Positions 655 through 19,506 of a stretch of DNA of 64,000 nucleotides are shown one piece after another. Numbering within the stretch: position 1 is the stretch's first letter; every line of letters starts with the position of its first letter. Location of the stretch: assembly GCA_037479045.1 (NCBI GenBank), contig JBBFLL010000002.1:73108-137107 (forward strand), read 5' to 3'. This DNA comes from Brevinematales bacterium (GTDB taxonomy: Bacteria > Spirochaetota > Brevinematia > Brevinematales > JAOACQ01). The position numbers and the translations under genes are program-made. The notes below the pieces were generated by a model. That model was not told the DNA's origin. It was given only the letters and a program-made list of their open reading frames with translations, and ran no database searches.

Positions 655-1875
655 TTATGTTCTTCTCAATAACTCACAAACTGAAGAAAAACCAAGTTTA
701 ACAAAAATTGGCAACTGTGCAAATGTTATTGCTATTGTATTCAGTAAAAGTGCAAGAGCAATCTGATAGGGCTTAATATAAAAATCAAGCTGATTTGTTC
801 CAGCCATAAGTACTGTTATGACTTCAAAAACTCCTTTCACGTTCCTTGAGCTTAAAAGTGAAGCAAAAAATATAGAAATTAAAGTGGCTATAAAAAGAGA
901 ACACAAAAGCTGGACAAATGACTCAAGGTATAGTAGTAAATTTATCCTCCCCTTTGGAATTCCCATGGCCATAAGAGCACCTATGTATGGTTGTTTTTGC
1001 CTGTAAATCATTACATAAACATTAAAGTTTACAACTACTACAATTGAAAGTACTACAATAATGATGAGAGAAATAAGTATAATCAGGAAGAAATTAAATT
1101 GTGTAGAAACATTCAAAGGATTTAAAGTAGAAAGACTTGTAATATTTATTGTAAACATTCCATCTCCAAACTCTTTTTTCATAAAGGGCAGGATGTAGTT
1201 CCAAAGTTCATCTATGTCTTTGTAGGGATTTTCCTTAAGAAATATAGCGTATTCAATTTCTTCAGGTTTTGGGAAGAAAAACTTCTCCATTTCCTCGTAA
1301 GTGAATAAAAGTCGTGGTTGTTGAAAGAAAGTAAGTTTTGTAGAGTTATATATTCCTACAACTTTGCAGGTTATAACATTGTAAAGTTTATCAGAAGTCT
1401 TACCACTTATGCGAATTACATCTCCAACCTTTATTTCTGACCTCTGTAAAAGTGAGGAAGGGATAATCACCTCTCTGCTTTTCTCTGGTAATCTTCCTTC
1501 TTTTAAATTTATAAACTTCTTTAAATACTTGTCAGCCTTCCAGTTCACACCTATCAACTCAGCCCAGCCTCCACTTGTTTCCATCCCGGTTGTTATGTAT
1601 TCCCCGTACGTTTTTATCCTCGGAGCCACATACAGGACAAAGGGAAGTTTTGAAATTTTTTCAAGCACCTCACTTTGGTTAAAGTTAGCGTTTTTATCCA
1701 CTCTGAAATTTAATTCACCAGAGAAAAGATTGTTTTGTAGTATCATTTGTCTTATAGAACCGTCTCTATATGCAAGGAGCATAATTATTATTACTAAAGA
1801 AACTACATTAACAAAGTACAACTTCCAGATTCTTTTAAATCCATGAAAAATTTCATTCAATATCATTATCCACAT
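655..1875 (-). CDS. ABC transporter permease, FtsX/MacB/LolCE-type (no fused ATPase)
   Basis: 406 aa. N-terminal TM, ~230-aa extracytoplasmic domain and a C-terminal multi-TM FtsX-like bundle. Lies 9 nt downstream of a paralogous permease gene. Confidence 0.7.
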   Translation of the reverse strand: MWIMILNEIFHGFKRIWKLYFVNVVSLVIIIMLLAYRDGSIRQMILQNNLFSGELNFRVDKNANFNQSEVLEKISKLPFVLYVAPRIKTYGEYITTGMETSGGWAELIGVNWKADKYLKKFINLKEGRLPEKSREVIIPSSLLQRSEIKVGDVIRISGKTSDKLYNVITCKVVGIYNSTKLTFFQQPRLLFTYEEMEKFFFPKPEEIEYAIFLKENPYKDIDELWNYILPFMKKEFGDGMFTINITSLSTLNPLNVSTQFNFFLIILISLIIIVVLSIVVVVNFNVYVMIYRQKQPYIGALMAMGIPKGRINLLLYLESFVQLLCSLFIATLISIFFASLLSSRNVKGVFEVITVLMAGTNQLDFYIKPYQIALALLLNTIAITFAQLPIFVKLGFSSVCELLRRT

Positions 1876-1884
1876 AGGCTTTCC

Positions 1885-3117
1885 TCAAAGTTCTCGTAAT
1901 ATTTCAACTGAACTTATCTGTCTAAGTTTTCTTATTATCATCAATATATTTGAAAAGATCATCATCAAAATAATTAGCAATGTGATCAATAATGTTGACG
2001 AATGCCCCTGGATTGTTAATCTCTGAGCACCAAATATAAATTGAAGTGGTATTATATTGGCTTCTATTCCGGATTTTTCCATAAGAGATGTTAAAAAGTT
2101 TCCAGAAACCACACCCATTATGCTAAATGTGAGTATAACTATCATAAACTCTCCCCCCAGAAGCGTTGCAATTCTATGGACTTTTACTCCCATTGCATGA
2201 TAAATCCCAATTTCCTGCAAACGGCTATCAATAGAAAGATAAATCAAAAACGATCCACATGCATAGATTAAAGTAAGTAAAACTATAAGGACACCTATAA
2301 TTACAATGGAAGTAATACTTGATATTCCACTTAAAAGTGAGGCAGAAGCAAGCGGGAATATGAATTTATATTGTTTCCCAAATTCCTTTTCAACCTCATG
2401 AATCAAAGTTTTTTTATAGGATTTATCTTTTAACTTTACCCATATTTCACTGGCAACAGGTTCGGTTGTTCCAAGAAGCTGATTTAAAAAGTCAAGATGA
2501 ACAAAACAATATAAGGCAAACTCAGAGTATATCTCCATATTGACGTAATCCAGTAGACCCGTAAGTCTGACAGTATCAAAATTAATGTACCCATCAAGAT
2601 TTTGAAGGCCAATTCCTAAAATCTCACCCTGTGTGAGATATAGATAATCTGAATGTCTGTAATACATCATTGCATCTGAAAGATTACATAACCACAGTCC
2701 TGCAAAAAGTTTCCTTCCGGGCAAAAGCAATTTCTCACTCTCAGGATCTACCCCAACAAGTATCATATATGCATCATTGTGTTCTGATTTAATATATGCC
2801 CATTTTCTCAATCTTGGTGAAGCAGAAACAACATAATCTTTACTCTTAAGAAAATTCCATAGCTTTTGCCAGGAAGGTAGTGTCTCAACCTTTTTTTCTC
2901 CATCCATAGTTATAATATCTATATGCTTTTTCTTTTCCGGAATTATTATGACATCAGAAGTAAGGCTTTGAATGGCAGAATTTTCTAAGGAATTTTTCAC
3001 AGAGAGTAAAATATTTATAGCTACTACAAGATAGAGAGTAAAAATAAAAATCATTATCCCCAGCAAACTGAAAAGGAAAATATGCTTTCTTATATTTGAC
3101 AAAATTAGCTTAATCAT
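1885..3117 (-). CDS. ABC transporter permease, FtsX/MacB/LolCE-type
   Basis: 410 aa with the same architecture as 655-1875. 4-nt overlap with the upstream gene (3114-3117). Confidence 0.7.
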   Translation of the reverse strand: MIKLILSNIRKHIFLFSLLGIMIFIFTLYLVVAINILLSVKNSLENSAIQSLTSDVIIIPEKKKHIDIITMDGEKKVETLPSWQKLWNFLKSKDYVVSASPRLRKWAYIKSEHNDAYMILVGVDPESEKLLLPGRKLFAGLWLCNLSDAMMYYRHSDYLYLTQGEILGIGLQNLDGYINFDTVRLTGLLDYVNMEIYSEFALYCFVHLDFLNQLLGTTEPVASEIWVKLKDKSYKKTLIHEVEKEFGKQYKFIFPLASASLLSGISSITSIVIIGVLIVLLTLIYACGSFLIYLSIDSRLQEIGIYHAMGVKVHRIATLLGGEFMIVILTFSIMGVVSGNFLTSLMEKSGIEANIIPLQFIFGAQRLTIQGHSSTLLITLLIILMMIFSNILMIIRKLRQISSVEILREL

Positions 3118-5124: not shown

Positions 5125-6078
5125 TTATTCTATCCCAAGTCTTTTAAAACACACTTGCTCGACCCATTCTTTATTAAGCCTTCTTGTCACATCAGACCAG
5201 TTCGTAAATTCTTCATAGGTATCAAGAACCGAAACCTCCGCACTTTCTCTACTTCTTCTTACTACAAGTCTACTTTCTTTATCTATCCAGTATATGCAGA
5301 ATTTGCTAAGCGTTCTACCCATAAGAAGTCTCAAAAGAAAATCTTCTGTATCCATCACTACTTTTATCGTATCATAAGTCTTGTAAGTAGTTTCAATTTT
5401 TTCTTCTTTTTCAATTTTTAGTCTACCAATAACTGGTGTCCTGAGAACATTAGGAGAAACAAATTGAGCCATACCACCCTTTTGAATATCCAGAAAACCA
5501 ATAGGAAAAGACATCGTAGCAGCAACATAGTTGAAAAAAGGTAGATTTTTATCTACTTTTGTCCTCCCTTTTTGGATTTTTGTTTCATATCCGTTCCATA
5601 TACCCCACTCAGATTCATAAATTCCACTTGACTCATCAAAGAATTCATGATGATACATCCATTGGCCAGCACTGTTTTTTGCCCTTCTGTTTGAAAAAAC
5701 AGCGTCGTATTTTATCACTTGAAGTTTCTCAAGATCAATAAGTTCAACGCTATCAAATTTATCAAGACTTTCGGGAAGAAAGGCTTGGGATTTAATGTCT
5801 TTAGCGTAAGAAGTATAATAGAAACTTCTACCATATATTCTAAGATAGCATTTATTATCAGTCTCTTCTTTTATCCATACATAGTGTTGATAACCTATGT
5901 GCATCCCAGCCATATCGTATAAAGAATAACGTATATAGGCTTTAGATGATAATAAGTTTTTATTAATTAGCAATATACCTTCTTTTGAATAAATAAAATT
6001 AGAAAGAAATAGCTGAGTTGAAAAAATAATTGAAAATCCAACAAAATTTTTCAGTTTTTTGATTATCATTATTAACAT
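5125..6078 (-). CDS. Secreted protein, paralog A of a 3-member family (function unknown)
   Basis: 317 aa with an N-terminal signal-like segment. About 90% identical by eye to 12879-13826, including a 173-nt perfect DNA match. C-terminus is NKEWVEQVCFKRLGIE. Confidence 0.75.
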   Translation of the reverse strand: MLIMIIKKLKNFVGFSIIFSTQLFLSNFIYSKEGILLINKNLLSSKAYIRYSLYDMAGMHIGYQHYVWIKEETDNKCYLRIYGRSFYYTSYAKDIKSQAFLPESLDKFDSVELIDLEKLQVIKYDAVFSNRRAKNSAGQWMYHHEFFDESSGIYESEWGIWNGYETKIQKGRTKVDKNLPFFNYVAATMSFPIGFLDIQKGGMAQFVSPNVLRTPVIGRLKIEKEEKIETTYKTYDTIKVVMDTEDFLLRLLMGRTLSKFCIYWIDKESRLVVRRSRESAEVSVLDTYEEFTNWSDVTRRLNKEWVEQVCFKRLGIE

Positions 6079-6133: not shown

Positions 6134-7069
6134 TCAATCTACCCCAAGTTTCTTAAAACACACCTGCTCGACCCATTCTTTATTAAGCTTTTCTGCCACA
6201 TCAGACCAGTTAGTAAACTCTTCGTATGCATCAAGAATTAAGTATTCTGAATTATTCTTATTAATTTTAACCACCATTTTTGTGTTTTTATCTATCCAGT
6301 AGATACAAAATTCCCTCGCCCATCTTCCAGCCATCAGACGAAGTAAAAAATCATGTACATCTGTCCCCAGCTTAATCGTATCAAATTCTCCCAGGACTGT
6401 ATTGATTTTTTCCTCTTTTATTATTTTGAAACTTCCAATAACAGACTCTTTAAAGTACTCAGGAAATGCAAATTGAAATTTTCTTTTGCCTGAAAAGTCA
6501 GTAAACCCAACTGGAAATCTCATACTTAATGCCGTGTAGTTTAAAACAGGTAATGATAAATCCACTTTTGTTCTACCTTTAAAAATCTTCATTTCATAAC
6601 CATTCCACATACCATATTCTGTCTCAAAAAAAGAATTTGATATATCTAATCTATCACTTATGTACATATATTGACCTCGACCTATTTTCTCTCTGCTGTT
6701 AGAATAGACTCCTCTCTCTTCTATTACCTGTGATTTTTCCAGATCTATTATGGCAAATGTTTGAAAACCTTCTAATTTCTCAGGCAAAAAGGCGTGTGAT
6801 TTCTTATCTTTTGCATAGGAGGAATAGCAGAAAATATTTTCATATATCTTAAGATAATTTTTCTCGTTTTCTTTTTCTTTTACCCATACATGATGAGCGT
6901 ACCCTGTGAGTTTGCCGCTTAAATCATAGAAGCCATATCTTAAATAAGCTTTCTCGGGAATTGAATCTACATTTAAAAAAGACTGATTTTTGTTGAGTTC
7001 TTGACCGCCAGATCTCTGAAAAAGGAGGATTAAACAGAATGAAAAAAGAAGTAATCTTACTATAAACAT
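6134..7069 (-). CDS. Secreted protein, paralog B of the same family (more divergent)
   Basis: 311 aa. Signal peptide MFIVRLLLFSFCLILLFQRSGG. Alignable end to end with paralogs A and C (YLRYGFYDLSG..., MWNGYEMKI.KGRTKVD, CIYWIDK, NKEWVEQVCFKKLGVD). Confidence 0.75.
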   Translation of the reverse strand: MFIVRLLLFSFCLILLFQRSGGQELNKNQSFLNVDSIPEKAYLRYGFYDLSGKLTGYAHHVWVKEKENEKNYLKIYENIFCYSSYAKDKKSHAFLPEKLEGFQTFAIIDLEKSQVIEERGVYSNSREKIGRGQYMYISDRLDISNSFFETEYGMWNGYEMKIFKGRTKVDLSLPVLNYTALSMRFPVGFTDFSGKRKFQFAFPEYFKESVIGSFKIIKEEKINTVLGEFDTIKLGTDVHDFLLRLMAGRWAREFCIYWIDKNTKMVVKINKNNSEYLILDAYEEFTNWSDVAEKLNKEWVEQVCFKKLGVD

Positions 7070-7119
7070 TTTCCTGATTTCTCCTTAAATATTTTAAATA
7101 ATCGATTATTTTTTTATTT

Positions 7120-7128
7120 ATTATAACA
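7120..7128 (-). promoter_or_regulatory. Possible extended -10 element (TGTTATAAT on minus strand) in the 193-nt gap upstream of paralog B
   Basis: Revcomp of 7120-7128 is TGTTATAAT. No good -35. This is the largest intergenic gap inside the cluster downstream of its 16164-16342 leader. Confidence 0.3.
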
Positions 7129-7262
7129 GAGCAAGAGATATATTCAGCATCATTTTTAACGACCTTAAAAATACCAATCCTAATATATCTTTACAAAACT
7201 CACATAAGTTCTTTGTATAAAGTATTAACACAATAAACCAGAATTTTCAACTAAAAACTATA

Positions 7263-8687
7263 TTACTTTTCTTTGAGTGCTGGTTTAATATTGTAAGTTC
7301 TTTCTGGAAGATAAAATCCAGAACCAGCAGGAAAATAATAAACATTTGTAATTTTGCCATTTTCATCAAAATAAAGTTGCTCCTTTGAAATATCAGATAA
7401 AGGAGCAAAAATCTCTACATCAGGTAGTTCTTTATGTATCATATTAGCAATATTAGCCCCTTTCTCTCCTCCTTTCCCTGCCGAGCAACTGGATATAACT
7501 ATAACACTATTGGTTGAAAATAACCCTTTGATAGATTTTAATTTTTCTCCATCATTTAAATCCAAAATTTCTTCATCTTTGTATTGATATTCTGTATTAC
7601 TTAACCTGAACATATCAATATTAGTTCCAGCTTTCCAGAATACTATTCTTCCCTCTCTACCATGACCATTTATCAACAATACATCAATCGACTGAAATAA
7701 TGCAGCATCTTTAATTGAATTAACAAATTCTATATCAGATTTTACCTGATAATAACTAACCCTGTACCCATTACTTGAAAGCTCCTCTACATTATGGACT
7801 CTAAAATCTATATCTGCTCTATTTCCAACAAATCCCGTATCAATAATTACTGAAAGTGGTTGAAAATTATCTTTCTGAGGAGATATTCTTTGTCTTGTTG
7901 CAATATCAAAGATTCTCTTATTATAAAATTTGAATGGATTAATAAAACCAAGTTTTGAAATAAGTTTCTCAAAATCATTTAGATTTTCCTTATTTACCGA
8001 AGTCAAAAGTTTCTTCTCAAACGAAGGAAAATAGATAACGAAAGGATTTACAGTAAAAGCTTTATTTACAAAGTCTTTATCTTTCAAGAGAGTTGAGGAA
8101 GCATACCGAAGATACCACCAATCTTCTTTCAAAAGGACAAGAAATAGATTCTTATCTTTCTTTAAAGTAGATTTTTCTTTATTGCCAGCAAAGTCAATTA
8201 TAGCTGGATTATACTTTATACATTCATATAAAAACTTCTTGCTATTTTTGAAACTTTCATCTGCATACTTCAAAGCAACAGGATTATTTTTAACCGCCTC
8301 CAGAACTATTTCCTTGTTTCTCCTTAAACTAAAATCTGCATATTCAAGTGAACTCCCTTCATTTTTTACAGCAAGAAATACTATTTCCTTGTCCTTTTTC
8401 AAGTTTGAAGATGCAAATTTCAGTGCCTTGCCGTTTTTGTTTACTGCAGTTTTTACTATCTCCTTATTACTTTGCCAGTTAGAACCTAAAAAACGAAGAC
8501 TCATAGGATCAATATCAATAACATTTAAAATAAAATCCTTGTCTTTTTTAAAATCTTCAGGAATATCCAAAACTGAAATTTCTCCGTTAGACAATGCCTT
8601 TATTAAGCTTTCTTTGTCAGTATTTTGCTCAGTACTCCAGATTAATCTTCCACATATAAGCAGAAGTATAAAAAAGATTACTTTCAT
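7263..8687 (-). CDS. Secreted DUF4116-repeat protein with a C-terminal domain carrying a His...Cys dyad (possible clan-CD/CHAT-like peptidase)
   Basis: 474 aa with a signal peptide. At least 4 repeats of the pattern KDKEIVxxAVKNNGxALKYAxxxLK, typical of DUF4116. The C-terminal ~190 aa contains LLINGHGREG and VIVISSCSAGKGG. Confidence 0.5.
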   Translation of the reverse strand: MKVIFFILLLICGRLIWSTEQNTDKESLIKALSNGEISVLDIPEDFKKDKDFILNVIDIDPMSLRFLGSNWQSNKEIVKTAVNKNGKALKFASSNLKKDKEIVFLAVKNEGSSLEYADFSLRRNKEIVLEAVKNNPVALKYADESFKNSKKFLYECIKYNPAIIDFAGNKEKSTLKKDKNLFLVLLKEDWWYLRYASSTLLKDKDFVNKAFTVNPFVIYFPSFEKKLLTSVNKENLNDFEKLISKLGFINPFKFYNKRIFDIATRQRISPQKDNFQPLSVIIDTGFVGNRADIDFRVHNVEELSSNGYRVSYYQVKSDIEFVNSIKDAALFQSIDVLLINGHGREGRIVFWKAGTNIDMFRLSNTEYQYKDEEILDLNDGEKLKSIKGLFSTNSVIVISSCSAGKGGEKGANIANMIHKELPDVEIFAPLSDISKEQLYFDENGKITNVYYFPAGSGFYLPERTYNIKPALKEK

Positions 8688-9943
8688 ATTGCTTTCTCAA
8701 CCTCTTTGTTTTTTTCACCGAAAACTAATTTAAAAAACTTTAAAAGTAAAAATATTAGATATGAAAATCCCCCAATCCATATTCCTGAATTTCTTAGAAA
8801 TATATTAAAAGTCTTTATATTTTCACCTTTTATTCCCGAAGATACAAGTGTTAATAATGGTTTCCATATGTAACTATCCAGATTCAATGTAATCTTAATC
8901 CAATTAATGTAAAATCCACTGAGAAAAGAAAACATAAAAAAGTAAAAAATGAAAAGATAAATAATTACAAATCTTTGAATCGATGGGGGATAAGAAGAAA
9001 AGGGAGATTTTTTCTCCTTTTTAACTATACTTTTTATCCAGTTTTTAATTTTTGTTTGCAAGCTTACAATTCCAAGAATATCGCTTAAAAACCAGTAGCC
9101 ATCCATTTTTAAAAATGGATTGAAAGTAGAAATGCTGAAAAGTGGAAAGAGTATTAAATAATCCTTTATTGCACCTGATTGGGTCAGAAAAAATGTAAAG
9201 AACAATGGAAGGAGAAAAATGAGTTCGAAATAAAAACCAGCAATTGAAACAATAGCTCTTTCCTTGCGAGGTAAATTCCAGGATTCATGAGTGTCTGTGT
9301 ACATTACAAACATAAAATAGTAAAATCCAAAGCCTATCCCATCTTTTGAAGGAACATTGTATTTTGCCAAAGCCACTGCATGACCCATTTCGTGAAAAAC
9401 TGTTTTGAAATATGGATAGATTACAAAGATTATAAAGTAATCCCATATCCCATAATACTTGATTGTTATATGTTTTGAAAAAAAAGAAAAATAGAATAAA
9501 AAAGCTTCGAGCAGACAAAATAAAGTTGTTACTCCAATTACAACTGGTTTTTTAAGAAAAAATTCAAAAATCTTCAAAAATCCAGCAAGTTTTGAAATAT
9601 CAAAAAGCTTTATTCTTAACCAGAAGTTTTCCATTCTGTTTCTAAAAGTAAAGTTTTCTTCTTTCTCTTTGAAATTGAAAGTTAAAAGTTTTTTTTGTTC
9701 TAAAAGATTTAAAACATTCTGTACAGACTTTTCATCTATTCCTAACTCTTCTCCTATTACCTTTCGAATTTCAGTGACTACCCCTCCCTCTTTTTTTTCT
9801 AAAAGGCTGATAAATTTTCTTACATTGCTATTTATTTCTACGTCACCAAGAGAAAAAGTAACTCTATATCTGATTTCATTTGAACTGGTATCGAGTGGAG
9901 AGATTTTGTAATTCCTTAAATAAACTTTATCATCATCCCTCAT
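8684..9943 (-). CDS. Polytopic membrane zinc metalloprotease (HExxH, M50-like) with an N-terminal PqqD/RRE-like domain
   Basis: 419 aa. FHEMGHAVAL (HExxH), then NPFLKMDGYWFLSD (M50-type N..P...DG motif), and multiple TM helices. N-terminal ~90 aa (NVRKFISLLEKKEGGVVTEIRKVIGEELGIDEKSVQNVLNLLEQKKLL) matches the PqqD-like winged-helix pattern. 4-nt overlap with the downstream gene. Confidence 0.6.
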   Translation of the reverse strand: MRDDDKVYLRNYKISPLDTSSNEIRYRVTFSLGDVEINSNVRKFISLLEKKEGGVVTEIRKVIGEELGIDEKSVQNVLNLLEQKKLLTFNFKEKEENFTFRNRMENFWLRIKLFDISKLAGFLKIFEFFLKKPVVIGVTTLFCLLEAFLFYFSFFSKHITIKYYGIWDYFIIFVIYPYFKTVFHEMGHAVALAKYNVPSKDGIGFGFYYFMFVMYTDTHESWNLPRKERAIVSIAGFYFELIFLLPLFFTFFLTQSGAIKDYLILFPLFSISTFNPFLKMDGYWFLSDILGIVSLQTKIKNWIKSIVKKEKKSPFSSYPPSIQRFVIIYLFIFYFFMFSFLSGFYINWIKITLNLDSYIWKPLLTLVSSGIKGENIKTFNIFLRNSGIWIGGFSYLIFLLLKFFKLVFGEKNKEVEKAI

Positions 9944-11234
9944 TTTTCAATCCTTCAGGTACGATAATCGCATAATTTACAAGATTTTTAAGTATCTCTA
10001 CCAGCTTTTTTTCTGGAATACGCTTTTTCGTTTTAGGACTTACTATTCCTCTCTTTTTTATATCCTCAATAACCATTTTTACACTCTTTTCGGTTTTCAC
10101 AGTAAGAAAAGGATAGAGATTTATTAAGTATAAAGTGTTTTTTTCTTTTCTAAAAAAAACATATGAATGTAGAAAAAATTTATTTTTAATTTCAACTTCA
10201 TAATTCTTCACTTTTTGTTGCCAAATTTCCAATAGTTCCATATCAAAAAATCTGAAAAAGAAAAAAACTTCTTTCAATTGCCTTCCATCCCATCCCAAAC
10301 ACTTTTTTCTAAGATTTTCATATAATAAGTTATATATAGTATTGCATAGTAACTGCCCTGTTTCGTTAAAGCTTAACATAGGTTTAAATTCAAAAATTTC
10401 TCCAATACTAAATAGGATTTTACCATTAAACTTTGGAAGTGTCATTATTGGTACTACAGGAGAACACGTCATTAAATGTAATATTGGAAAAATTGAAGTA
10501 ATAACTAAAGACTTTTTCCCATTCATAGTATAAACAAAAAATTTTGCTCTATCTCTATTATAATCACAGAATGCTTTTTTTATATACTCTTGAATCTTAA
10601 CATCGTTATTATCTAAGTTAATTAAGGGTAAATCTCCAAAAATAACAATAGGAAATCCGTTTCTTAATGATTGCAACATATTAAGAGGAAAATTTTTTTT
10701 ATCTTCCAAAAAACAAAAAGAAATAGTTCCAGAAAAATCAGGAAAATTAAAAAATATTCTATCAGACTCCAACTTCACATACTTTTTGTATTTTTCATAA
10801 TGCTTCTGTCTAAAGAGACTTAAAAAATATTTATACACATCACCAGATCTTAGGGCAAGTACATTTATATAACTTATATTCAACTTTTTAATTAGATAAA
10901 AGACGCTTTCCAACATCACTTCACTATGAAAGATAAAAAAGATAGCTGTTTTAAATTCATTTAGTTTTTTGATTGTATCATTTTGAAATATGCAAGTATC
11001 ACTTTCTATCAAAAACCATCGTATTCTTAAATTTGTTAATTTATTTAAAGTTTTAGAAAAACATTTGATTTTTCTATTTTGACTATTAATTATTTTAACA
11101 TTATTAAAAACTCTAAAAAGAAAACTTGCAAACCATAAGTCTTTCAAGCTTTTCTCCGTGTTTTCACTGATATAGTAATATATATAGGTAAAAATAAAAA
11201 AAATTGTGTAGATAATTCTTTTCAGGAACAACAT
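9933..11234 (-). CDS. Hypothetical protein (433 aa), N-terminal TM; possible acyltransferase-like enzyme, unassigned
   Basis: Long ORF with an 11-nt overlap with the downstream protease gene. No motif recognised with confidence. The FHSEVMLE segment only loosely recalls the HX4(D/E) motif of LpxL-type acyltransferases. The C-terminal ~60 aa is again winged-helix/PqqD-like by eye. Confidence 0.55.
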   Translation of the reverse strand: MLFLKRIIYTIFFIFTYIYYYISENTEKSLKDLWFASFLFRVFNNVKIINSQNRKIKCFSKTLNKLTNLRIRWFLIESDTCIFQNDTIKKLNEFKTAIFFIFHSEVMLESVFYLIKKLNISYINVLALRSGDVYKYFLSLFRQKHYEKYKKYVKLESDRIFFNFPDFSGTISFCFLEDKKNFPLNMLQSLRNGFPIVIFGDLPLINLDNNDVKIQEYIKKAFCDYNRDRAKFFVYTMNGKKSLVITSIFPILHLMTCSPVVPIMTLPKFNGKILFSIGEIFEFKPMLSFNETGQLLCNTIYNLLYENLRKKCLGWDGRQLKEVFFFFRFFDMELLEIWQQKVKNYEVEIKNKFFLHSYVFFRKEKNTLYLINLYPFLTVKTEKSVKMVIEDIKKRGIVSPKTKKRIPEKKLVEILKNLVNYAIIVPEGLKNEG

Positions 11235-11341: not shown

Positions 11342-12565
11342 TTAGTTAAGATTTTTAAGCAATATAACTGCGTTACTTCCTCCAAATGCAAAGGCATTTA
11401 CCAATGCACAATTTACTTCATAATCTATAGACTCGTTGGCAACATAATCTAAATCACACTCTGGATCAGGTTCATCTAAGTTTATAGTTGGATGTAATTT
11501 ATTTTCTTTCATCTGAATTATAGCTGCTATAGTTGAAATTACCCCACTTGCCCCCATTGTATGTCCAATCATAGATTTTACCGAATTAACCTTTAATTTA
11601 TATGCTTTGTCTTTAAACATATTTTTGATGGCAATTGTCTCTTCAAAATCGTTCACTGGAGTCCCTGTTCCATGTGCTTGAATATAATTTACTTTTTCAA
11701 ACAATTCAGGATAATCCTGAAAACTTTTCTCTATAGCTTTTTCTATTGATTTGTGATTTGTATGAGTGAGATGGGTTGTATCATTTGAATACCCATAACC
11801 ACAAACTTCTGCCAGCGGAATTAAACCAAATTTTTCACAAATCTCTTCTTTTGTAATTATTACTGCTCCAGCACCTTCTCCCAGAACAGTGCCCTTTCGT
11901 CGTTTACTAAAAGGAGAAGGAACTTTGGTCGGATTTTCATTATCCTTTTCGAGAACATTCAACTTATTCCATCCTATTATACTTACTGGGAAAAGAGGTG
12001 TATCCGTTCCTCCAGCAACGACCAGATCAAGAACCCCCCATTTTATAAATAGATACCCCAAGCCTATAGCATGTAAAGAAGAAGAACAAGCTGTATCTAC
12101 AGTAATTGAAAAATCTGAAAGTTTCCATTTTTCCGAAACAAGAGCCGTAGAAGAACACCTCATACTCCGGACTAAAAATAAGGGATTAATAAAATTCTCT
12201 TGTCCCTTATTATAATATCCATAGGTCTTATCCAACGTTTCATTCCCATTGTAACAGGTTCCAATAAAAATTCCTTTTTTTAGTTCTATTCTTTCAAAAA
12301 TAGGATTTAAATTATAAGCCTTTATTGCTTCATTTACAGAATAATCCAGAAAATAAAATGCTCTATCTTCTCGCATCTTTTCAATACCAATTTTTTTTAA
12401 ATCTTTATTTTTGACTTCTCCACCTATTTTCACAGGAATATTAGAATAATCATCATTTTCTAGTTTCGAAATTTGAGAAATTCCAGAAAGAATAGAACGC
12501 GAAAACTCATTGATTCCAAAAGAAGCCGGGCTTAAAACACCCATACCAACGACAAATATTTTCAT
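11342..12565 (-). CDS. Beta-ketoacyl-ACP synthase, FabF/KAS-II-like (cluster-dedicated)
   Basis: 407 aa. Cys-His-His triad motifs DTACSSSLHAIG, AHGTGTPVND and IGHTMGASG, with the C-terminal NAFAFGGSNA. Confidence 0.85.
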   Translation of the reverse strand: MKIFVVGMGVLSPASFGINEFSRSILSGISQISKLENDDYSNIPVKIGGEVKNKDLKKIGIEKMREDRAFYFLDYSVNEAIKAYNLNPIFERIELKKGIFIGTCYNGNETLDKTYGYYNKGQENFINPLFLVRSMRCSSTALVSEKWKLSDFSITVDTACSSSLHAIGLGYLFIKWGVLDLVVAGGTDTPLFPVSIIGWNKLNVLEKDNENPTKVPSPFSKRRKGTVLGEGAGAVIITKEEICEKFGLIPLAEVCGYGYSNDTTHLTHTNHKSIEKAIEKSFQDYPELFEKVNYIQAHGTGTPVNDFEETIAIKNMFKDKAYKLKVNSVKSMIGHTMGASGVISTIAAIIQMKENKLHPTINLDEPDPECDLDYVANESIDYEVNCALVNAFAFGGSNAVILLKNLN

Positions 12566-12570
12566 AATAA

Positions 12571-12822
12571 TTACCCTTGGAAGTTTTCAAGGTATTCCCG
12601 GATTTTTGATATGGTTAGTAAACCAGATGTCTCTTCAGGAGGAAAGTTTATATTAAATTTTTTCTCAATCTCAAATAGAATTTCAAGAAGAGATAATGAA
12701 TCAGCTTTGAGGTCTTCAACAAAATGAGTATTTTCACTGATATCCGCCGGCGATATCTTTAAAATTTCAGCAATTATATTTTTGATTTCCATAATATCCT
12801 TTTCTGAAATTTGCATTTTCAA
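12571..12822 (-). CDS. Acyl carrier protein (cluster-dedicated)
   Basis: 83 aa. Phosphopantetheine-attachment motif LKADSLSLLEI. Lies 5 nt upstream of the KS gene. Confidence 0.8.
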   Translation of the reverse strand: MKMQISEKDIMEIKNIIAEILKISPADISENTHFVEDLKADSLSLLEILFEIEKKFNINFPPEETSGLLTISKIREYLENFQG

Positions 12823-12878: not shown

Positions 12879-13826
12879 CTACTCGACTCCAAGTCTTTTA
12901 AAACACACCTGCTCAACCCATTCCTTGTTAAGTTTTTCTGCTACTTCAGACCAGTTTGTAAATTCTTCGTAGGTGTCAAGAATCGAAACCTCCGCACTTT
13001 CTCTACTCCTTTTTACTACAAGTCTACTTTCTTTATCTATCCAGTATATGCAGAATTTGCTAAGCGTTCTACCCATAAGAAGTCTCAAAAGAAAATCTTC
13101 TGTATCCATCACTACTTTTATCGTATCATAAGTCTTGTAAGTAGTTTCAATTTTTTCTTCTTTTTCAATTTTTAGTCTACCAATAACCGGTGCCCTGAGA
13201 ATATTAGGAGAAACAAACTGAGCCATACCACCCTTTTGAATATCCAAAAAGCCCACAGGAAAGGACATTGTACCAGCAACATAGTTAAAGAAAGGAAGAT
13301 TTGTATCAACTTTCGTCCTACCCTTTTGGACTTTTGTTTCATATCCATTCCATGTTCCCCACACAGATTCATAAATTCCATTTGACTCATCAAAGGATTC
13401 ATGATGATACATCCATTGGCCAGCACTATTATTTGCCCTTTTGTTTGAAAAAACAGCATCGTATTTTATCACTTGAAGTTTCTCAAGATCAATAAGTTCA
13501 ACGCTATCAAATTTATCAAGACTTTCTGGAAGGAAAGCTTGTAATTTAACATCTTTCGCGTAAGAAGTATAATAGAAACTCCTCCCATATATTTTAAGAT
13601 AGCATTTATTATCAGTTTCCTCTTTTATCCATACATAGTGTTGATAACCCATGTGCTTTCCAGCCATATCGTATAAAGAATAGCGTATATAGGCTTTCAA
13701 AGGTATTAAGTTTGGATTAAGAAACAATTTCTTTATCGATTGAGAATAAGTTGAATTGATAAGAAAAATGTAATTAATCATTACGCAGCATATCAGAAAA
13801 TTAGCCCCTCTTTTTTTAACCAACAT
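12879..13826 (-). CDS. Secreted protein, paralog C of the 3-member family
   Basis: 315 aa. Near-identical to paralog A except for the N-terminal signal region. First gene after the candidate precursor. Confidence 0.75.
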   Translation of the reverse strand: MLVKKRGANFLICCVMINYIFLINSTYSQSIKKLFLNPNLIPLKAYIRYSLYDMAGKHMGYQHYVWIKEETDNKCYLKIYGRSFYYTSYAKDVKLQAFLPESLDKFDSVELIDLEKLQVIKYDAVFSNKRANNSAGQWMYHHESFDESNGIYESVWGTWNGYETKVQKGRTKVDTNLPFFNYVAGTMSFPVGFLDIQKGGMAQFVSPNILRAPVIGRLKIEKEEKIETTYKTYDTIKVVMDTEDFLLRLLMGRTLSKFCIYWIDKESRLVVKRSRESAEVSILDTYEEFTNWSEVAEKLNKEWVEQVCFKRLGVE

Positions 13827-13953: not shown

Positions 13954-14055
13954 CTACTCAGCTGCACAACAGTTACCACAACCAGCGCCACCAAAATCTA
14001 CCTTTTCTTCTACTTCTTCAACCTCAAATACTAAATAATCTTGTCTCTCATTCAT
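13954..14055 (-). CDS. Candidate RiPP precursor peptide, 33 aa: MNERQDYLVFEVEEVEEKVDFGGAGCGNCCAAE
   Basis: Hand-translated; too short for the ORF track. The ATG (14055-14053) overlaps the TGA (14054-14052) of the upstream gene as ATGA. GGAGGG lies 5 nt upstream. Acidic leader, Gly-Gly at residues 22-23, and a 10-residue core with 3 Cys. Sits immediately downstream of the rSAM and pseudo-rSAM genes. Confidence 0.65.
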   Translation of the reverse strand: MNERQDYLVFEVEEVEEKVDFGGAGCGNCCAAE

Positions 14056-15020
14056 GGTATCCCTCCTTTCTTATAGATTTCTCCCCTTTCCTCTTTTTTT
14101 ATTACTTTTAAGTATTTTTTTCTTAATAAGCATTCATTTTTTTTGCTACTATTAAGACTTAAACACTTAAGACCATAACAAAACAGAGAAAACTTACATT
14201 CTTTAAGATTATTACACTTCTTTTTCACTGGTTCATAAGAGAGAAGTCTTTCAGGACAATAGTCCTTTTTCCCTATATCATCATAACATACCTTCCTATA
14301 TATAAAAGGACAGATTAGAAAAACTTTATCTTTCAACACATTTTCAAAATTCTCGAAAAACAAATCGCCTTTTCCCCAGCACCCATCCTTAAAGTCTAAA
14401 AAATCACCAATGTTTTCTGGTTTATCAGAAAGAATAACCAGCCTTATATTTGAAAATAAATCTTCCATGCCAAACGGGTTAAAGTTCTCTATTTCATTTT
14501 CGTTTACAGAAAGCCACAAAGCACCTTTTTGAAAACCATACGAATTCACTTTTTTTGCAATTTCAAGCGTTAATTCAAGGTTTTCAAAATCACTCCAGAA
14601 ATTTACTTTTTCAATATTTTCTTCTTTTTTAATTTTTTCAACCCAATTTTTAAGTTTACTTTCATTCCAGCTTACATTTTTTCTTTCTCTTTTTAAATAC
14701 CCCGGCTTTCCAACAAGAAGAAAAACTTCCTTGTAGCTGGTTTTAAGTTTGTTAACTTTGCTTTCAAGAAAAGTCAGAATTTCCCTTTTTTCCTCTTCTT
14801 CGCTGTAGCAGGTTATATACCATTTTTTAAGCCAGTCTGAAATCTCTTTTTCAGAAAAAGGATATCTATTATCAGGCATAAAACTTTCATTTTTATCCTG
14901 GATTTCTTTAAGTGATTTCCATTTTGATAAATCAATTTCTTCAAGTTCACCTGTTATTAGACTCAGAATGAAATACCTTTCATCTTTATTAATTAAAAAA
15001 CAACCTTCTGCAATTCTCAT
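14052..15020 (-). CDS. Maturase-like accessory protein lacking the radical SAM CxxxCxxC motif, with a Cys-rich (9 Cys) SPASM-like C-terminus ('pseudo-rSAM')
   Basis: 322 aa with no CxxxCxxC anywhere. The last ~110 aa contain 9 Cys, including CNNLKECKFSLFCYGLKC. Lies 3 nt downstream of the rSAM gene. Confidence 0.55.
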   Translation of the reverse strand: MRIAEGCFLINKDERYFILSLITGELEEIDLSKWKSLKEIQDKNESFMPDNRYPFSEKEISDWLKKWYITCYSEEEEKREILTFLESKVNKLKTSYKEVFLLVGKPGYLKRERKNVSWNESKLKNWVEKIKKEENIEKVNFWSDFENLELTLEIAKKVNSYGFQKGALWLSVNENEIENFNPFGMEDLFSNIRLVILSDKPENIGDFLDFKDGCWGKGDLFFENFENVLKDKVFLICPFIYRKVCYDDIGKKDYCPERLLSYEPVKKKCNNLKECKFSLFCYGLKCLSLNSSKKNECLLRKKYLKVIKKEERGEIYKKGGIP

Positions 15021-15023
15021 ATT

Positions 15024-16163
15024 CTACAAAGGAATAAGACGGGAGTAGAAAAATCCAATGCCTTTTTCGGTAAGTCTTCCTATTGCTCTTTCCTTTTCAA
15101 TTGCCACAGTACATTTAGTAACAAACCCGTCTGGGCGGATTAAAAATGAGTTTCTTATCTCTGCATCACAATATTTATATTCTCTTTTTAAACCTAAAGG
15201 ACTACTAAAACCTCTCTTTGACAATTCATTTAGAAGGAATTTTTCTACACTAGAATTAATTTTGTAAGTACAGTTACTTTCATTATCTTTATTCCCATCC
15301 CAGTCTTCAGTACACGAAGAATATATATCTCTAAAGTAAATATCAACTCTATCCTTAAATTTCTTGAAGATGTCAAAGATTGAAAGAATTTCATTTAGTT
15401 CAGTTTCTTCTCCGCTGTGGATGTGAATTCTAACTGCTATCTTATTCAAAGGATTTGCTTCTAAGAAATTAGTCACGTTTTTTATAATTGTATCAAAGGT
15501 AGGCTGTCCCCCAACAAGAGTTCTCATTTTGTTATGTCTTGTCTTACCACCATCAAGTGTAAAGTGAACATCTCTTAATTGAATTTTATCGAAAATATTG
15601 ATTATTTTATCATTGAGGAGAACTGCATTTGTAGTTATTCCAGTATTAAATTTTATCTCCCATTTTTTTGAAATATCTACAGCAAAAGTACCTATCTCTT
15701 CAATTATTTCAGGCATCAAGAGTGGCTCACCACCGAACCAGCTTATTCCAAGAAAATTAAGGGTCTTAGCTCTGTTTTCAATTAACTTACAGATATTTTT
15801 GACAACATCATATGACATTCTCTCCTCAGGATGAATCTCATAACAATACGGACAACGACAGTTACAATTCAGGGTGGGAACTATTGTAAGGATCAGCTTA
15901 TCTATCCTGTAAATATCCTGATTGCGTAACTCCAGAAGAAGATTATATTCATCAATGTTATCTGGAATGAGTAATTTACCATCAACAAGTTTTTTATAAA
16001 TCTTTGCGTCTTTATTGGAAACTACATCTTCCGGATTACTTAAAATTTTTATTACATCTTCTTTCCATTCGAGTGGAAAAGATGTATAGCTATTCCCAAA
16101 CCAGGAATACAGGACATACTCATTCTCTGTTAAGAAATCGACAAAATAATTTGTTGACTTCAT
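15024..16163 (-). CDS. Radical SAM peptide-maturase-type enzyme (anSME/SPASM-twitch family-like)
   Basis: 379 aa. CNCRCPYC contains CX3CX2C. Also WFGGEPLL (GGE motif), ITTNAVLL and HFTLDG. The C-terminal region has 4 Cys, including YCDAEIRNSFLIRPDGFVTKC, typical of an auxiliary-cluster domain. SD GGGGGA precedes the ATG. Confidence 0.8.
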   Translation of the reverse strand: MKSTNYFVDFLTENEYVLYSWFGNSYTSFPLEWKEDVIKILSNPEDVVSNKDAKIYKKLVDGKLLIPDNIDEYNLLLELRNQDIYRIDKLILTIVPTLNCNCRCPYCYEIHPEERMSYDVVKNICKLIENRAKTLNFLGISWFGGEPLLMPEIIEEIGTFAVDISKKWEIKFNTGITTNAVLLNDKIINIFDKIQLRDVHFTLDGGKTRHNKMRTLVGGQPTFDTIIKNVTNFLEANPLNKIAVRIHIHSGEETELNEILSIFDIFKKFKDRVDIYFRDIYSSCTEDWDGNKDNESNCTYKINSSVEKFLLNELSKRGFSSPLGLKREYKYCDAEIRNSFLIRPDGFVTKCTVAIEKERAIGRLTEKGIGFFYSRLIPL

Positions 16164-16311
16164 TCCCCCGACCTTTTTTAATTCTTAAGTTAATATTCTT
16201 TATTTCAAACTTTTTATATTGTTTTAAATTAAATTTTTACACCTTTTACTAAAACTACCAGAAATTTTTCCTCAATTTTGAAATTTTTTATAAAAATTTT
16301 TTTGTTTTATC

Positions 16312-16342
16312 ATTATACATCTGGGGGGGGGTGGATTGTCAA
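16312..16342 (-). promoter_or_regulatory. Sigma70-type promoter for the rSAM operon: TTGACA-N19-TATAAT, with the homopolymer tract inside the spacer
   Basis: Revcomp of 16337-16342 (tgtcaa) is TTGACA. Revcomp of 16312-16317 (attata) is TATAAT. The spacer 16318-16336 is 19 nt and includes nine consecutive C on this strand. The rSAM ATG is ~150 nt downstream. Confidence 0.6.
16323..16331. repeat. Homopolymeric G9/C9 tract
   Basis: Nine consecutive G on the + strand in an otherwise extremely AT-rich intergenic region. Confidence 0.95.
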
Positions 16343-16545
16343 GGTTTTTTGGAAAAATTTAAAAATTTTTTATAATTTTTATATTTGAAAAAGTAATTAA
16401 ATTGTTTTATATTAAAATAATTATAAAAAGGAGAATAAATTTAATTTATTATTTTTAAAAAGATTAAATATCTTATAGAGAGAATAGGATATCTTGACTT
16501 AGTTAGATTTAATTTTACCTTTTTAATTTACAGAATAATTGTTAA

Positions 16546-16710
16546 AAAACCCAATACAGATTTTCTGACTACATAACGGCAAATCTTTACGGAAGATTTG
16601 TGTTTAACCAGTATGCAGATGTTGCCCCACTCGAAAATAGTGTTCGCAAAACCTACTTCGATCCAGGTTATGGACTACAGATTGGGATTGACTTAAGAAT
16701 TACCTTCTAA
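16546..16710 (+). pseudogene. Relic of the C-terminal ~54 codons of an outer-membrane beta-barrel protein gene (no start, no N-terminal part)
   Basis: Frame open only from 16546. Translates to KTQYRFSDYITANLYGRFVFNQYADVAPLENSVRKTYFDPGYGLQIGIDLRITF*, with alternating-hydrophobic terminal strands ending in Phe, an OMP C-terminal signature. Locally higher GC than the flanking spacer. The stop codon overlaps the prfA stop convergently. Confidence 0.45.
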
Positions 16711-17781: not shown

Positions 17782-19506
17782 CTATATAGAAATCTGTATG
17801 TTAAATAGTCTATTGTATATACCTTTTTGTGAAATTAATTCGCTGTGAGTTCCAATTTCAACAATTTTACCGTTTTCTATAACTATTATCTTATCAGCTT
17901 TCATAATTGTTGAAAGTTTATGTGCAATTATTATTGTTGTTTGTTTACCTAAAATTGTTTCCATAGCTTTTTTTATTGATTCTTCAGACTCAGCATCAAG
18001 AGAACTTGTAGCCTCATCAAGTATCAAGATTTTTGGTTTTCTCAATATTGCTCTTGCAAGGGCTATTCTCTGTCTTTCTCCACCTGAAAGTTTGACACCT
18101 CTATCTCCTATCTCAGTTTGATAGCCTTTTTCAAGTTTTGAAATAAAATTGTGTGCGTTAGCAATTTTTGCTGCTTCTATTATTTCTTCCATTGTAGCAT
18201 GAGGGTTTGAGATTTTTATATTTTCTTCTATAGTTCCAGAAAATAGTATATTTTCTTGAGTTACAAGACTTATTTTTTCTCTCAATAAGTGTGTGTCAAT
18301 TGTAAAAATATCCTTTTCATCTATTAATACTTTTCCAGACGTGGGATAGTATAAGCCAAGTATTAAAGAAACTATTGTAGATTTTCCAGCACCACTATGA
18401 CCAACAATTGCTATCGTTTCGCCAGGCTTAATATTAAAATTTATATCTTTTAAAATATAATTATCCCCTTCATAAGCAAAAAAAACATTTTCAAAATCAA
18501 TTTTGCCTTCCAGTTTATTCAATTTAATAAGATTTTCAATTTCTTTTGTTTCATAATCGATAAGCTCAAATATTCTTTTACCAGCAGGTATAAGTTTTTT
18601 TAATACCATAAAAACATCAGTTGATTTACTTAAAGGTTCTGCAAGAAGTAAACAAAGAGTTATAAAACTTATGATTTCAGATGGTGTAGCAAGACCGTTT
18701 TTTACAATTATTGAACCAAAAAATAAAATAATGATTATCCCCAAAGCCCCAAGAAATTCTGATGTGGGTGTCCCAAGAAATCTCACCCTTATTTCTTTTT
18801 TTGTAGAAGATAAATAATCTCTATTTACATTGAAGAATTTGTCTTTCATATTATTTTCTATAGAAAAGCCTTTTATGATTTCAATTCCATATATAGATTC
18901 CTGTATTACAGAAGTGACGTTTGAAATGTTTTTTTGAACTGTTTGACTTAACTTCTGCACAAGTCCCCCAATTCCACCGAGAACTATTGCGATTATTGGA
19001 GTTATAGAAAAGAAATAAAGTGAAAGTTTGAAATTTATGAAGAATAAAATCACTACAACAGCAATTAAAGTAAGTGGCTGTATTAAAAGCTCTACCATTA
19101 CATTCATAAAAAAAACTTCAATTATCTGAACATCATTAATCAACCTTGAGATAATATCACCGAGTTTATTTTTTTTAAAATAAGACATAGGAAGAGATAA
19201 AACTTTTTCATAAACATTCTTTCTTATGTCATGCATAACATTCATTGCAAGTGAAGTAGATGAAACAAAAATAAGATAATGCGATAATACCCACCCAAAC
19301 GCAAGTCCAATAAGGATAAGAATTGATGTTATATCACTACCTTGCAAATTCTTTTCAATAAAGGCTTGAGAAAAATACTTTGTGGCAAAAAAAGCTGCTC
19401 CAACCTTTGCAAAAACAAAAAATAAAGAAAGTATAATAGAAAAAATAAACAAAAATGGATATTTAAATCCATATCCTAAAATTCGCTTTAAAACTTTATT
19501 GTCCAT
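17782..19506 (-). CDS. ABC exporter, fused TMD-NBD, MsbA/lipid A flippase-like
   Basis: 574 aa with 6 TM in the N-terminal half. Walker A GHSGAGKST, signature LSGGERQR, Walker B ILILDEATS. No N-terminal C39 peptidase domain. Confidence 0.85.
   Translation of the reverse strand: MDNKVLKRILGYGFKYPFLFIFSIILSLFFVFAKVGAAFFATKYFSQAFIEKNLQGSDITSILILIGLAFGWVLSHYLIFVSSTSLAMNVMHDIRKNVYEKVLSLPMSYFKKNKLGDIISRLINDVQIIEVFFMNVMVELLIQPLTLIAVVVILFFINFKLSLYFFSITPIIAIVLGGIGGLVQKLSQTVQKNISNVTSVIQESIYGIEIIKGFSIENNMKDKFFNVNRDYLSSTKKEIRVRFLGTPTSEFLGALGIIIILFFGSIIVKNGLATPSEIISFITLCLLLAEPLSKSTDVFMVLKKLIPAGKRIFELIDYETKEIENLIKLNKLEGKIDFENVFFAYEGDNYILKDINFNIKPGETIAIVGHSGAGKSTIVSLILGLYYPTSGKVLIDEKDIFTIDTHLLREKISLVTQENILFSGTIEENIKISNPHATMEEIIEAAKIANAHNFISKLEKGYQTEIGDRGVKLSGGERQRIALARAILRKPKILILDEATSSLDAESEESIKKAMETILGKQTTIIIAHKLSTIMKADKIIVIENGKIVEIGTHSELISQKGIYNRLFNIQISI

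Follow-up and report, generated by a model that had tools for sequence, protein, structure and literature searches.

A rare gene cluster from a Brevinematales bacterium that appears to pair a radical SAM peptide maturase with a degenerate, non-catalytic paralog and a Cys-rich precursor peptide

We analyzed a 64,000-nucleotide (nt) stretch of a Brevinematales contig (hereafter the window; JBBFLL010000002.1, positions 73,108 to 137,107, assembly GCA_037479045.1; Brevinematia, spirochaete phylum) in which three consecutive genes, all read off the minus strand, encode a 379-aa radical S-adenosylmethionine (rSAM) protein, a 322-aa protein here called the partner, and a 33-aa peptide. We favor, with a probability of roughly 0.55, the reading that this locus is a rare and uncatalogued gene cluster for a peptide that is made on the ribosome and modified after translation (RiPP), composed of an rSAM maturase, a degenerate and non-catalytic paralog of such a maturase, and a Cys-rich precursor. 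The cluster is a real, rare and uncatalogued variant of a known theme, that of an rSAM maturase accompanied by an inactive rSAM-like protein. Nothing in it departs from known RiPP logic, and the functions proposed below are predictions from sequence comparison. In the strain represented by the window, the rSAM gene is a recent deletion allele that lacks most of the domain known as SPASM.

The three genes are tightly packed. The ATG of the partner open reading frame (ORF; 14052..15020, minus strand) lies 3 nt past the stop codon of the rSAM ORF (15024..16163, minus strand; TAG AAT ATG), and the partner stop codon is overlapped by the start of the precursor ORF (ATGA; 13954..14055, minus strand), which has a strong Shine-Dalgarno sequence and homologs at the same position elsewhere. 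The partner contains 11 Cys, nine of them within residues 214-297, and no CxxxCxxC motif; its position, the missing motif and the nine Cys near its end had all been reported in a first-pass annotation of this DNA, and each can be read in the sequence. The arrangement is not peculiar to the window. In all of the seven independent loci, a partner gene comes directly after the rSAM gene, the two either overlapping slightly or standing 1-3 nt apart. In clade members with 37-48% rSAM identity, synteny places an unannotated protein of 339-358 aa directly after each rSAM (350 aa in L008/L009, 351 aa in L170, 358 aa in L171, 340 aa in L174, and 339 aa in L176, a Bacteroidales metagenome-assembled genome (MAG)). 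The partner of L007, a high-GC relative, is split into 133 and 227 aa: an N-terminal ORF of the leader-binding type at 9350-9751 and the remainder at 9748-10431, overlapping by 4 nt. This is either a natural domain split, resembling a stand-alone RiPP recognition element (RRE), or a frameshift. The gene set that recurs in about seven loci worldwide comprises the rSAM, the partner, the peptide, a protein of ~415 aa and an M50-like protease, and its hosts are Brevinematia, Bacteroidales and metagenomic bacteria. Scans of genome and metagenome collections with an rSAM profile retrieved further relatives only at 33% identity or less, none of them with a partner.

The rSAM protein (NCBI MEJ5283697.1, from a Brevinematales MAG) combines an N-terminal domain of the leader-binding type (residues ~1-90) with an rSAM core (~94-253). 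The CX3CX2C motif of the SAM-cleaving [4Fe-4S] cluster is present as CNCRCPYC (15843..15866, minus strand), its three Cys (C100, C104 and C107) are invariant across the rSAM clade, and GGEPLL and TTNAVLL occur at residues 144 and 177. All of these motifs had been listed in the first-pass annotation, and a score of 51.0 bits with the Pfam model Radical_SAM (PF04055, cut-off 29.5) establishes membership in the superfamily. The closest NCBIfam families are Clo7bot (TIGR04334; 160.5 bits, cut-off 600), TIGR04463 (153 bits, cut-off 525) and CefB (NF038107; 146.7 bits, cut-off 600), all under cut-off; PapB (NF047865) scored 94 bits (cut-off 340) and SCIFF (TIGR03974) 86 bits (cut-off 425). The family profiles align to the window protein only over positions ~20-365 of ~440. 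The closest database protein, the 446-aa P0002 from a Brevinematia MAG, is 99% identical across all 379 window residues and scored 174.9, 172.7 and 163.7 bits with Clo7bot, TIGR04463 and CefB, again without reaching the equivalog cut-offs. CteB (PDB 5wgg, E 4e-12) is the closest solved structure. We regard the protein as a predicted peptide maturase of the clade that acts on Cys-rich peptides and forms thioethers. A sulfatase maturase, an alternative raised in the first-pass annotation itself, was rejected: TIGR03942 gave 52.1 bits against a cut-off of 349, no sulfatase domain was found in the scanned neighbours, and a conserved precursor adjoins the gene.

The C-terminal region of the window protein holds four Cys (C284, C298, C332 and C351), as the first-pass annotation had said in describing an auxiliary-cluster region there; they do not make up a complete cluster site, however, since the CX2CX5CX3C...C segment has been deleted and only C332 and C351 belong to the invariant Cys of the SPASM domain. 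C298 is not conserved, while C284 is kept in six of seven clade members and replaced by His in the seventh. It lies in a clade-specific motif, S-C-T-[ED]-x-W, at residues 282-288 (15300..15320, minus strand), upstream of the SPASM domain and with W288 invariant; this motif may contribute an additional ligand to a cluster or touch the substrate.

The relationships of the partner are much harder to detect. It had no match in Pfam, none in NCBIfam at E ≤ 10 and none among PDB sequences (phmmer). Six members of its family gave only stray NCBIfam matches (E 0.12-0.38) in a search whose HMMER filters may hide very weak ones, and BLASTP of the rSAM against the partner returned nothing significant. 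HMMER, run exhaustively over 1.84 billion representative proteins, found just two relatives, and a word-indexed profile search one more (P0039). The partner homologs (n = 6) align over their full length with the window partner at 20-26% identity. Where CX3CX2C would align, no more than the third Cys survives in them (..IG..WC), and none does in the partners of the window and L007. Five Cys of the C-terminal part are nevertheless invariant at this low identity (C237, C255, C275, C281 and C286), and two more, C269 and C297, are each present in five of the six homologs. In the window partner the spacing is C237-x17-C255, including G-x4-C, then C269-x5-C275-x5-C281-x4-C286 and finally C297; for the family as a whole it is C-x17-C, then C-x5/6-C-x5-C-x3/4-C and a final C, which matches the SPASM pattern except that the first spacing is wider. 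These features go beyond chance, because the Cys are kept at 20-26% identity and because the leader motif of the precursors described below occurs, across the small ORFs in 176 loci, only at the syntenic position.

Profile comparisons connect the partner to rSAM/SPASM maturases. A hidden Markov model (HMM) of the partner family, run against all ORFs of 176 loci, matched maturases in L154 (E 2.5e-7 and 1.7e-8) and L164 (E 1.8e-4). Residues ~1-117 of the partner align to the N-terminal domain of these enzymes up to the CxxxCxxC strand, at which the partners read ..LLLD..IG..WC, and a second match puts the Cys tail of the partner on their SPASM domain. We then used hhalign with two target sets, 12 L154-like maturases and all 134 rSAM/SPASM proteins, and with reversed sequences as controls. 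The whole partner (~325 columns) gave E 1.9e-9 (96.3%) and 1.1e-7 (94.2%) against the two sets, respectively, with controls at 0.019 and 0.03; residues 1-96 gave 1.2e-9 and 1.5e-8 (controls 0.36-0.6), and residues 227-322 gave 3.2e-4 and 2.7e-4 on the SPASM region (controls 0.32-0.45). Against the seven-member close rSAM clade there was a weak match to the SPASM region (E 0.0077, probability 5%) with the Cys in register. The first-pass annotation had proposed a kinship with rSAM/SPASM proteins, a front end like the substrate-binding domain of maturases and a SPASM-like tail, and the three proposals are borne out by the full-length, N-terminal and C-terminal comparisons.

Taken by its sequence, then, the partner is related to rSAM/SPASM maturases but has diverged from them; the SAM-cluster motif is missing, and it has ~100 fewer core residues than the rSAM maturase. 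There is strong support for a predicted leader-binding-type (RRE-type) domain at residues 1-96 (14733..15020, minus strand), where the hhalign and HMM matches coincide with AlphaFold2 (AF2) predicted local distance difference test (pLDDT) values of 83-92. Support is moderate for a SPASM-like Cys domain at the C-terminus (14055..14342, minus strand), as suggested by the conserved Cys and by hhalign. Between them, residues 97-226 (14343..14732, minus strand) are predicted by AF2 to form four beta/alpha repeats; they are collinear with the rSAM core and for that reason may be what is left of an rSAM barrel that has shrunk. No relatives of the partner N-terminus closer than the N-terminal domains of the L154 maturases were detected, and that metagenome contig (Ga0315308_1003017) carries at least three paralogous rSAM/SPASM maturases on 9.5 kb (1-501, 999-2345 and 6881-8299).

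The third gene encodes the precursor, MNERQDYLVFEVEEVEEKVDFGGAGCGNCCAAE. Its leader comprises residues 1-21, ends in FEVEEVEEKVDF and is followed by GG and the core. Leaders of the family are acidic and conserved, with the motif F-[ED]-[VI]-x-[DE]-x-E-E-K-[VL]-[DE]-F, and cores are rich in Cys and Gly. Giving the end of the leader, the next two residues and the rest, the six precursors read ...LVFEVEEVEEKVDF, GG and AGCGNCCAAE in the window; ...VLFDVEPVEEKVDF, GG and GNCGWGCVAD in L007; ...HFEVVDMEEKLDF, LS and GGGCGFKCS in L171; ...MFEIVDIEEKLDF, AV and SNNHKCSVF in L008; and ...FEIIDLEEKLEF in both L174 and L176, followed by CG and CN, respectively, and a long Cys/Gly-rich core. GG is thus not a conserved feature, since it follows the leader in only two of the six, and no C39 peptidase domain was found nearby, including in the nearby ABC transporter; the GG-leader peptide mentioned in the first-pass annotation does not define this family. 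A small ORF of the precursor type lies downstream of the partner in each locus that has downstream sequence. In L171 and L170 a gene of ~290 aa comes directly after the partner; in L171 the peptide is encoded beyond it, and the L170 contig, which is short, yielded no precursor peptide. NCBIfam precursor models gave no match to any of the six precursors.

Comparison of the window with full-length forms of the rSAM gene revealed that its product is truncated. Beyond ...SRLIP, P0002 continues as FEKKKLLETGDCKDCKFLPYCWGQC...ERC..., which constitutes a complete CX2CX5CX3C...C of the SPASM type, and the SPASM model TIGR04085 matches it at 48.3 bits (cut-off 27) over residues 332-413, with the seven Cys CKDCKFLPYCWGQC...RC. 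In a DNA alignment with five other assemblies, L001, L003, L004 and L005 carry exactly 201 bases that are absent from the window and from the Logan contig L006. The junction lies at 15027..15028 (minus strand). The deletion is in frame (TT|T GAG ... AA|G TAG to TTG TAG), removes 67 codons covering CX2CX5CX3C...C and the C-terminal helix, and leaves the stop codon intact and the partner ATG still 3 nt away. Five of the seven SPASM Cys are lost with it; the remnant, at 15111..15170 (minus strand), is the first part of the domain, C332 ... PDG-x4-C351, in which C332, P344, D345, G346 and C351 are invariant in the clade. The 379-aa allele consequently does not have the seven-Cys pattern C-x9-15-G-x4-C ... 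C-x2-C-x5-C-x3-C ... C, and no other part of the window encodes the missing tail. The DNA flanking the deletion matches that of the MAG at 99.95% identity over ~19 kb, and between L006 and the window identity is 100%. Whereas the 446-aa form is found in at least seven contigs from several sources, the 379-aa form is known from one NCBI MAG protein and one Logan contig. It is a recent, strain-specific deletion allele and the minority form. An origin of the truncation in assembly alone is less likely, as the same junction occurs in L006 and in the NCBI MAG protein, which possibly derive from one sample. A second length difference separates window positions 7119..7216 from L001 positions 19149..19406; here the MAG is ~160 bases longer, in an intergenic region after a DUF4116 gene.

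All homologs and four other same-species assemblies have a full SPASM domain on the rSAM, so the native rSAM is not split, in contrast to the first-pass annotation, which described a split into an rSAM core and a separate Fe-S/recognition subunit. What the deletion costs can be gauged from PapB, in which auxiliary cluster 1 (AC1) is bound by C352, C370 and C421, corresponding to the first two SPASM Cys and the fourth Cys of CX2CX5CX3C, and auxiliary cluster 2 (AC2) by C408, C411, C417 and C440, corresponding to the other three Cys of CX2CX5CX3C and the final Cys (PMC10470005). A PapB variant without AC1 cleaves SAM but makes no cross-link, a variant without AC2 performs a single turnover, and re-reduction of the SAM cluster is obligatorily intermolecular, probably via AC2 (PMC10470005). 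By this assignment one AC1 ligand and all four AC2 ligands are gone from the window maturase, which in this strain should therefore be crippled for cross-linking; we consider this probable, unless the partner substitutes in trans. Three clade members, P0005, P0006 and P0007 (loci L170, L175 and L171), have lost the first and third Cys of CX2CX5CX3C at ~residues 400-415 (EMKNCSVFPFSWGGC). It follows that some family members probably have no AC2 or a changed one, and this may be taken as a weak hint that AC2 is either dispensable there or delegated.

Further genes of the same orientation lie downstream of the trio. A 315-aa protein with a hydrophobic N-terminus and no Pfam or NCBIfam match (12879..13826, minus strand) has a second copy of 317 aa ~7 kb away (5125..6078, minus strand; ~91% nucleotide identity over 832 nt), also without a family match. 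It is followed by genes for an acyl carrier protein (ACP; 12571..12822, minus strand; PF00550 48.7 bits, TIGR00517 62 bits, under the cut-off of 70) and a FabF-like beta-ketoacyl-ACP synthase (ketosynthase, KS; 11342..12565, minus strand; PF00109 and PF02801, TIGR03150 316 bits, under the cut-off of 494). The latter has a homolog in L008, whose cluster additionally contains a ketoreductase, a dehydratase and a second KS. A conserved 433-aa protein with an RRE-like C-terminus (9933..11234, minus strand) has syntenic homologs in L008, L171, L174 and L176. It contains an invariant F-H (e.g., TFHFIGNIE) and, ~100 residues later, an invariant Asp, recalling the HX4(D/E) motif of acyl-ACP acyltransferases, which would fit the adjacent ACP and KS genes. 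The idea of an LpxL/PatA-like acyltransferase with an RRE drew no support from PDB or Pfam, and a single-sequence AF2 model was unusable (pLDDT 40). The candidate leader peptidase is an M50-like HExxH intramembrane metalloprotease of 419 aa (8684..9943, minus strand), with HEMGH and several membrane segments; it scored 80.9 bits (E 1e-22) with NF041824 (daptide_HExxH), missing the cut-off of 300, and 26.9 bits with PF02163, just under the cut-off of 27.2. This protease is kept in L008, L171, L174 and L176 at 32-36% identity. Two permease genes of the MacB/FtsX type and a DUF4116 repeat protein occupy 655..3117 and 7263..8687 (both minus strand), and the recurrence of MacB/FtsX exporter genes in the window, L171 and L176 suggests a dedicated exporter. 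On the upstream side, a gap of 543 nt (16164..16706) separates prfA from the rSAM gene. No ORF of at least 25 aa was found there on the minus strand, Rfam gave no match and no promoter call was convincing; the gap presumably carries the regulatory region of the cluster. An Rfam scan of the window gave no matches, and a promoter/terminator scan was uninformative (43 sites against 41.7 expected).

In the mechanism that we propose, the active rSAM would abstract a hydrogen atom and form Cys-derived, thioether-type cross-links in the core of the precursor. We infer cross-linking of this type because the nearest named rSAM relatives mature Cys-rich peptides or form thioethers. The partner would take no part in radical chemistry. 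Co-translated with the rSAM and probably in a complex with it, it would hold the leader, carry one or two [4Fe-4S] clusters that return electrons to the SAM cluster, or do both; a non-catalytic Fe-S and leader-binding subunit is the most likely role for it. The M50-like protease would afterwards cut off the leader, and in the window cluster and L008 the products of the ACP and KS genes might add a lipid.

Several observations weigh against this proposal. No similarity to the rSAM barrel reached significance in the middle region of the partner (residues 97-226; E 0.15 with both hhalign target sets, controls 0.005-0.008). The AF2 model, which places a beta3-alpha unit, four beta/alpha units, and hairpins and helices in that order, has an overall pLDDT of 58, is of low confidence in the middle region and falls below 50 in the Cys domain, a weakness attributable to an alignment of only four sequences. 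A Foldseek search of the PDB with this model returned no match at E ≤ 0.001; SuiB, CteB and stand-alone RREs such as TbiB1 ranked highest among the non-significant matches, a ranking that we use as a hint only. The first Cys spacing in the partner family (Cx5-6C) differs from that of SPASM (Cx2C), and binding of an Fe-S cluster is therefore not assured. Partners of P0005-P0007 do not have fuller Cys sets, so there is no clear sign of complementation, and since both partner and rSAM have a leader-binding-type N-terminal domain, either of them could bind the leader. Lipidation is a guess: ACP and KS genes occur in only two of the seven loci, and the 433-aa protein cannot be assigned by Pfam or PDB.

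The alternative that we take most seriously concerns the strain rather than the family, namely that the cluster is decaying, the rSAM deletion being a loss-of-function lesion that leaves the pair inactive in the window genome. We put this at not far short of an even chance. Five of the seven SPASM Cys have been deleted in what is a minority allele, and auxiliary-cluster variants of PapB either are unstable and show no activity or stop after one turnover (PMC10470005). On the other hand, the rest of the cluster genes are intact, with 99.95% identity to their counterparts in the full-length strain, and the deletion introduced neither a frameshift nor a premature stop. Decay in this strain would also be compatible with the function proposed for the family. 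The same in-frame deletion, with its retained stop codon, downstream coupling and intact cluster, can be turned into an argument for the opposite view, in which the enzyme is divided over two chains, the partner supplies the auxiliary clusters to the rSAM core, and the 379-aa rSAM is fully functional. The seven Cys of SPASM pattern on the partner and the tight coupling of the two genes would agree with this, as would P0005-P0007, whose natural lack of two AC2 Cys implies that some of the family can do without AC2 on the rSAM, and C284, C332 and C351 could still supply three ligands for one cluster. We nevertheless give a divided enzyme little weight. Every homolog, and the majority allele (at least seven contigs as opposed to one or two), has its own SPASM domain beside the partner, which means that the partner did not evolve as a SPASM replacement; AC1 adjoins the active site and binds a substrate Cys, would be hard to supply from another chain, and cannot be dispensed with in PapB, which is inactive without it (PMC10470005); and 99.95% identity marks a recent deletion that may not yet have been purged. 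Similarly doubtful is the related idea that the partner acts as the auxiliary-cluster subunit of a heterodimer, providing for the intermolecular electron return that multiple turnovers require in PapB and rescuing the SPASM-less rSAM in trans. Were it true, nature would have produced in the 379-aa allele a minimal maturase that still works, and P0005-P0007, in which AC2 has degenerated, would stand partway along that route.

The remaining alternatives concern what the partner does. It may be a leader-binding scaffold or chaperone only, in effect a large PqqD-like RRE protein whose Cys serve zinc binding or disulfides and have no redox role. The strongest homology signal in the partner does come from its N-terminal leader-binding-type domain, which is modular enough to form a separate 133-aa ORF in L007, and the Cys spacing is unlike that of canonical SPASM, and at two of the seven positions a single homolog lacks the Cys. 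We think a pure scaffold unlikely, though deserving of some weight, since the rSAM already possesses an N-terminal domain of the same type and since five Cys remain invariant at 20-26% identity, in register with SPASM Fe-S ligands and including the G-x4-C hairpin. Very improbable, in our view, is that the partner is an enzyme in its own right, using SPASM-type clusters for SAM-independent chemistry such as oxidation or desulfurisation of core Cys. Its strict retention beside the rSAM across phyla, despite very low identity, would be explained, as would a middle region that is conserved in the family (I-D-I-W, W-T-V-V) and unlike known domains; but no catalytic motif or known fold was detected in it, and its architecture is collinear with that of an rSAM/SPASM maturase stripped of catalytic motifs. 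We therefore retain a non-catalytic partner as the favored reading.

If it is correct, the locus bears on a question of wider interest. The role of auxiliary clusters in rSAM/SPASM enzymes is still debated, and the PapB data indicate that the electron returns via another protein or a mediator. A paralog that has kept auxiliary-cluster Cys and the leader-binding-type domain while losing the SAM cluster could serve the maturase as its own redox or substrate-handling aid and would offer a clean test system. The species moreover offers two natural alleles, one with the SPASM domain and one without it, in an otherwise identical background. The cluster family has no Pfam or NCBIfam model, and the peptide it makes in these poorly studied lineages may be small, Cys-rich and cross-linked, and possibly carries a lipid.

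Among catalogued systems, the closest in logic is that of the GG-Bacteroidales peptides (maturase TIGR04148, GG_samocin_CFB), in which an active rSAM likewise stands beside an adjacent rSAM-like protein without CxxxCxxC and a short precursor; the latter two correspond to what we take to be TIGR04150 and TIGR04149, respectively. A Bacteroidales MAG is also the source of one locus of the present family, L176. Identity with this system, a catalogued Bacteroidetes trio of the kind cited in the first-pass annotation, was not upheld. TIGR04148 scored only 48 bits on the window protein and 46.4 on P0002 (cut-off 300), the rSAM is nearer to Clo7bot, TIGR04463 and CefB, GG is not conserved, the leader motif is a different one, and in HMMER searches against NCBIfam partner and peptide matched no model. 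Bacteroidales loci screened for members of TIGR04148 and TIGR04150 yielded none, and the terms pseudo-rSAM and GG-Bacteroidales were not found in the papers covered by our literature search. The partner may still be a very distant relative of the GG-Bacteroidales pseudo-rSAM family, from which the NCBIfam model searches set it apart. TIGR04347, another catalogued rSAM/SPASM-like pseudo-enzyme (pseudo-SAM/SPASM protein), is listed among the matches of the L154 maturases, and its model does not match the partner at E ≤ 10.

With the maturases PapB (ranthipeptides), CteB, SCIFF, Clo7bot, TIGR04463 and CefB, the full-length rSAM as represented by P0002 shares an N-terminal leader-binding-type domain, a CX3CX2C core and a complete SPASM domain, and like the thioether-forming rSAM/SPASM maturases it appears to act on Cys-rich peptides. 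Unlike them, it is always paired with a degenerate paralog, lacks CX2CX5CX3C...C in the window allele, and stays under every curated family cut-off, for example with 175 bits against 600. The 419-aa neighbour, which probably removes the leader, has HExxH and membrane segments in common with the daptide protease NF041824; it stays under cut-off, though, and the scanned neighbours match no other daptide family in Pfam or NCBIfam. Finally, a leader-recognition domain on a separate chain beside an rSAM/SPASM enzyme is also seen in PqqD/PqqE and in pairings with stand-alone RREs, from which the present pair differs in that the partner is far larger and has a SPASM-like Cys domain, while the rSAM keeps an N-terminal domain of its own.

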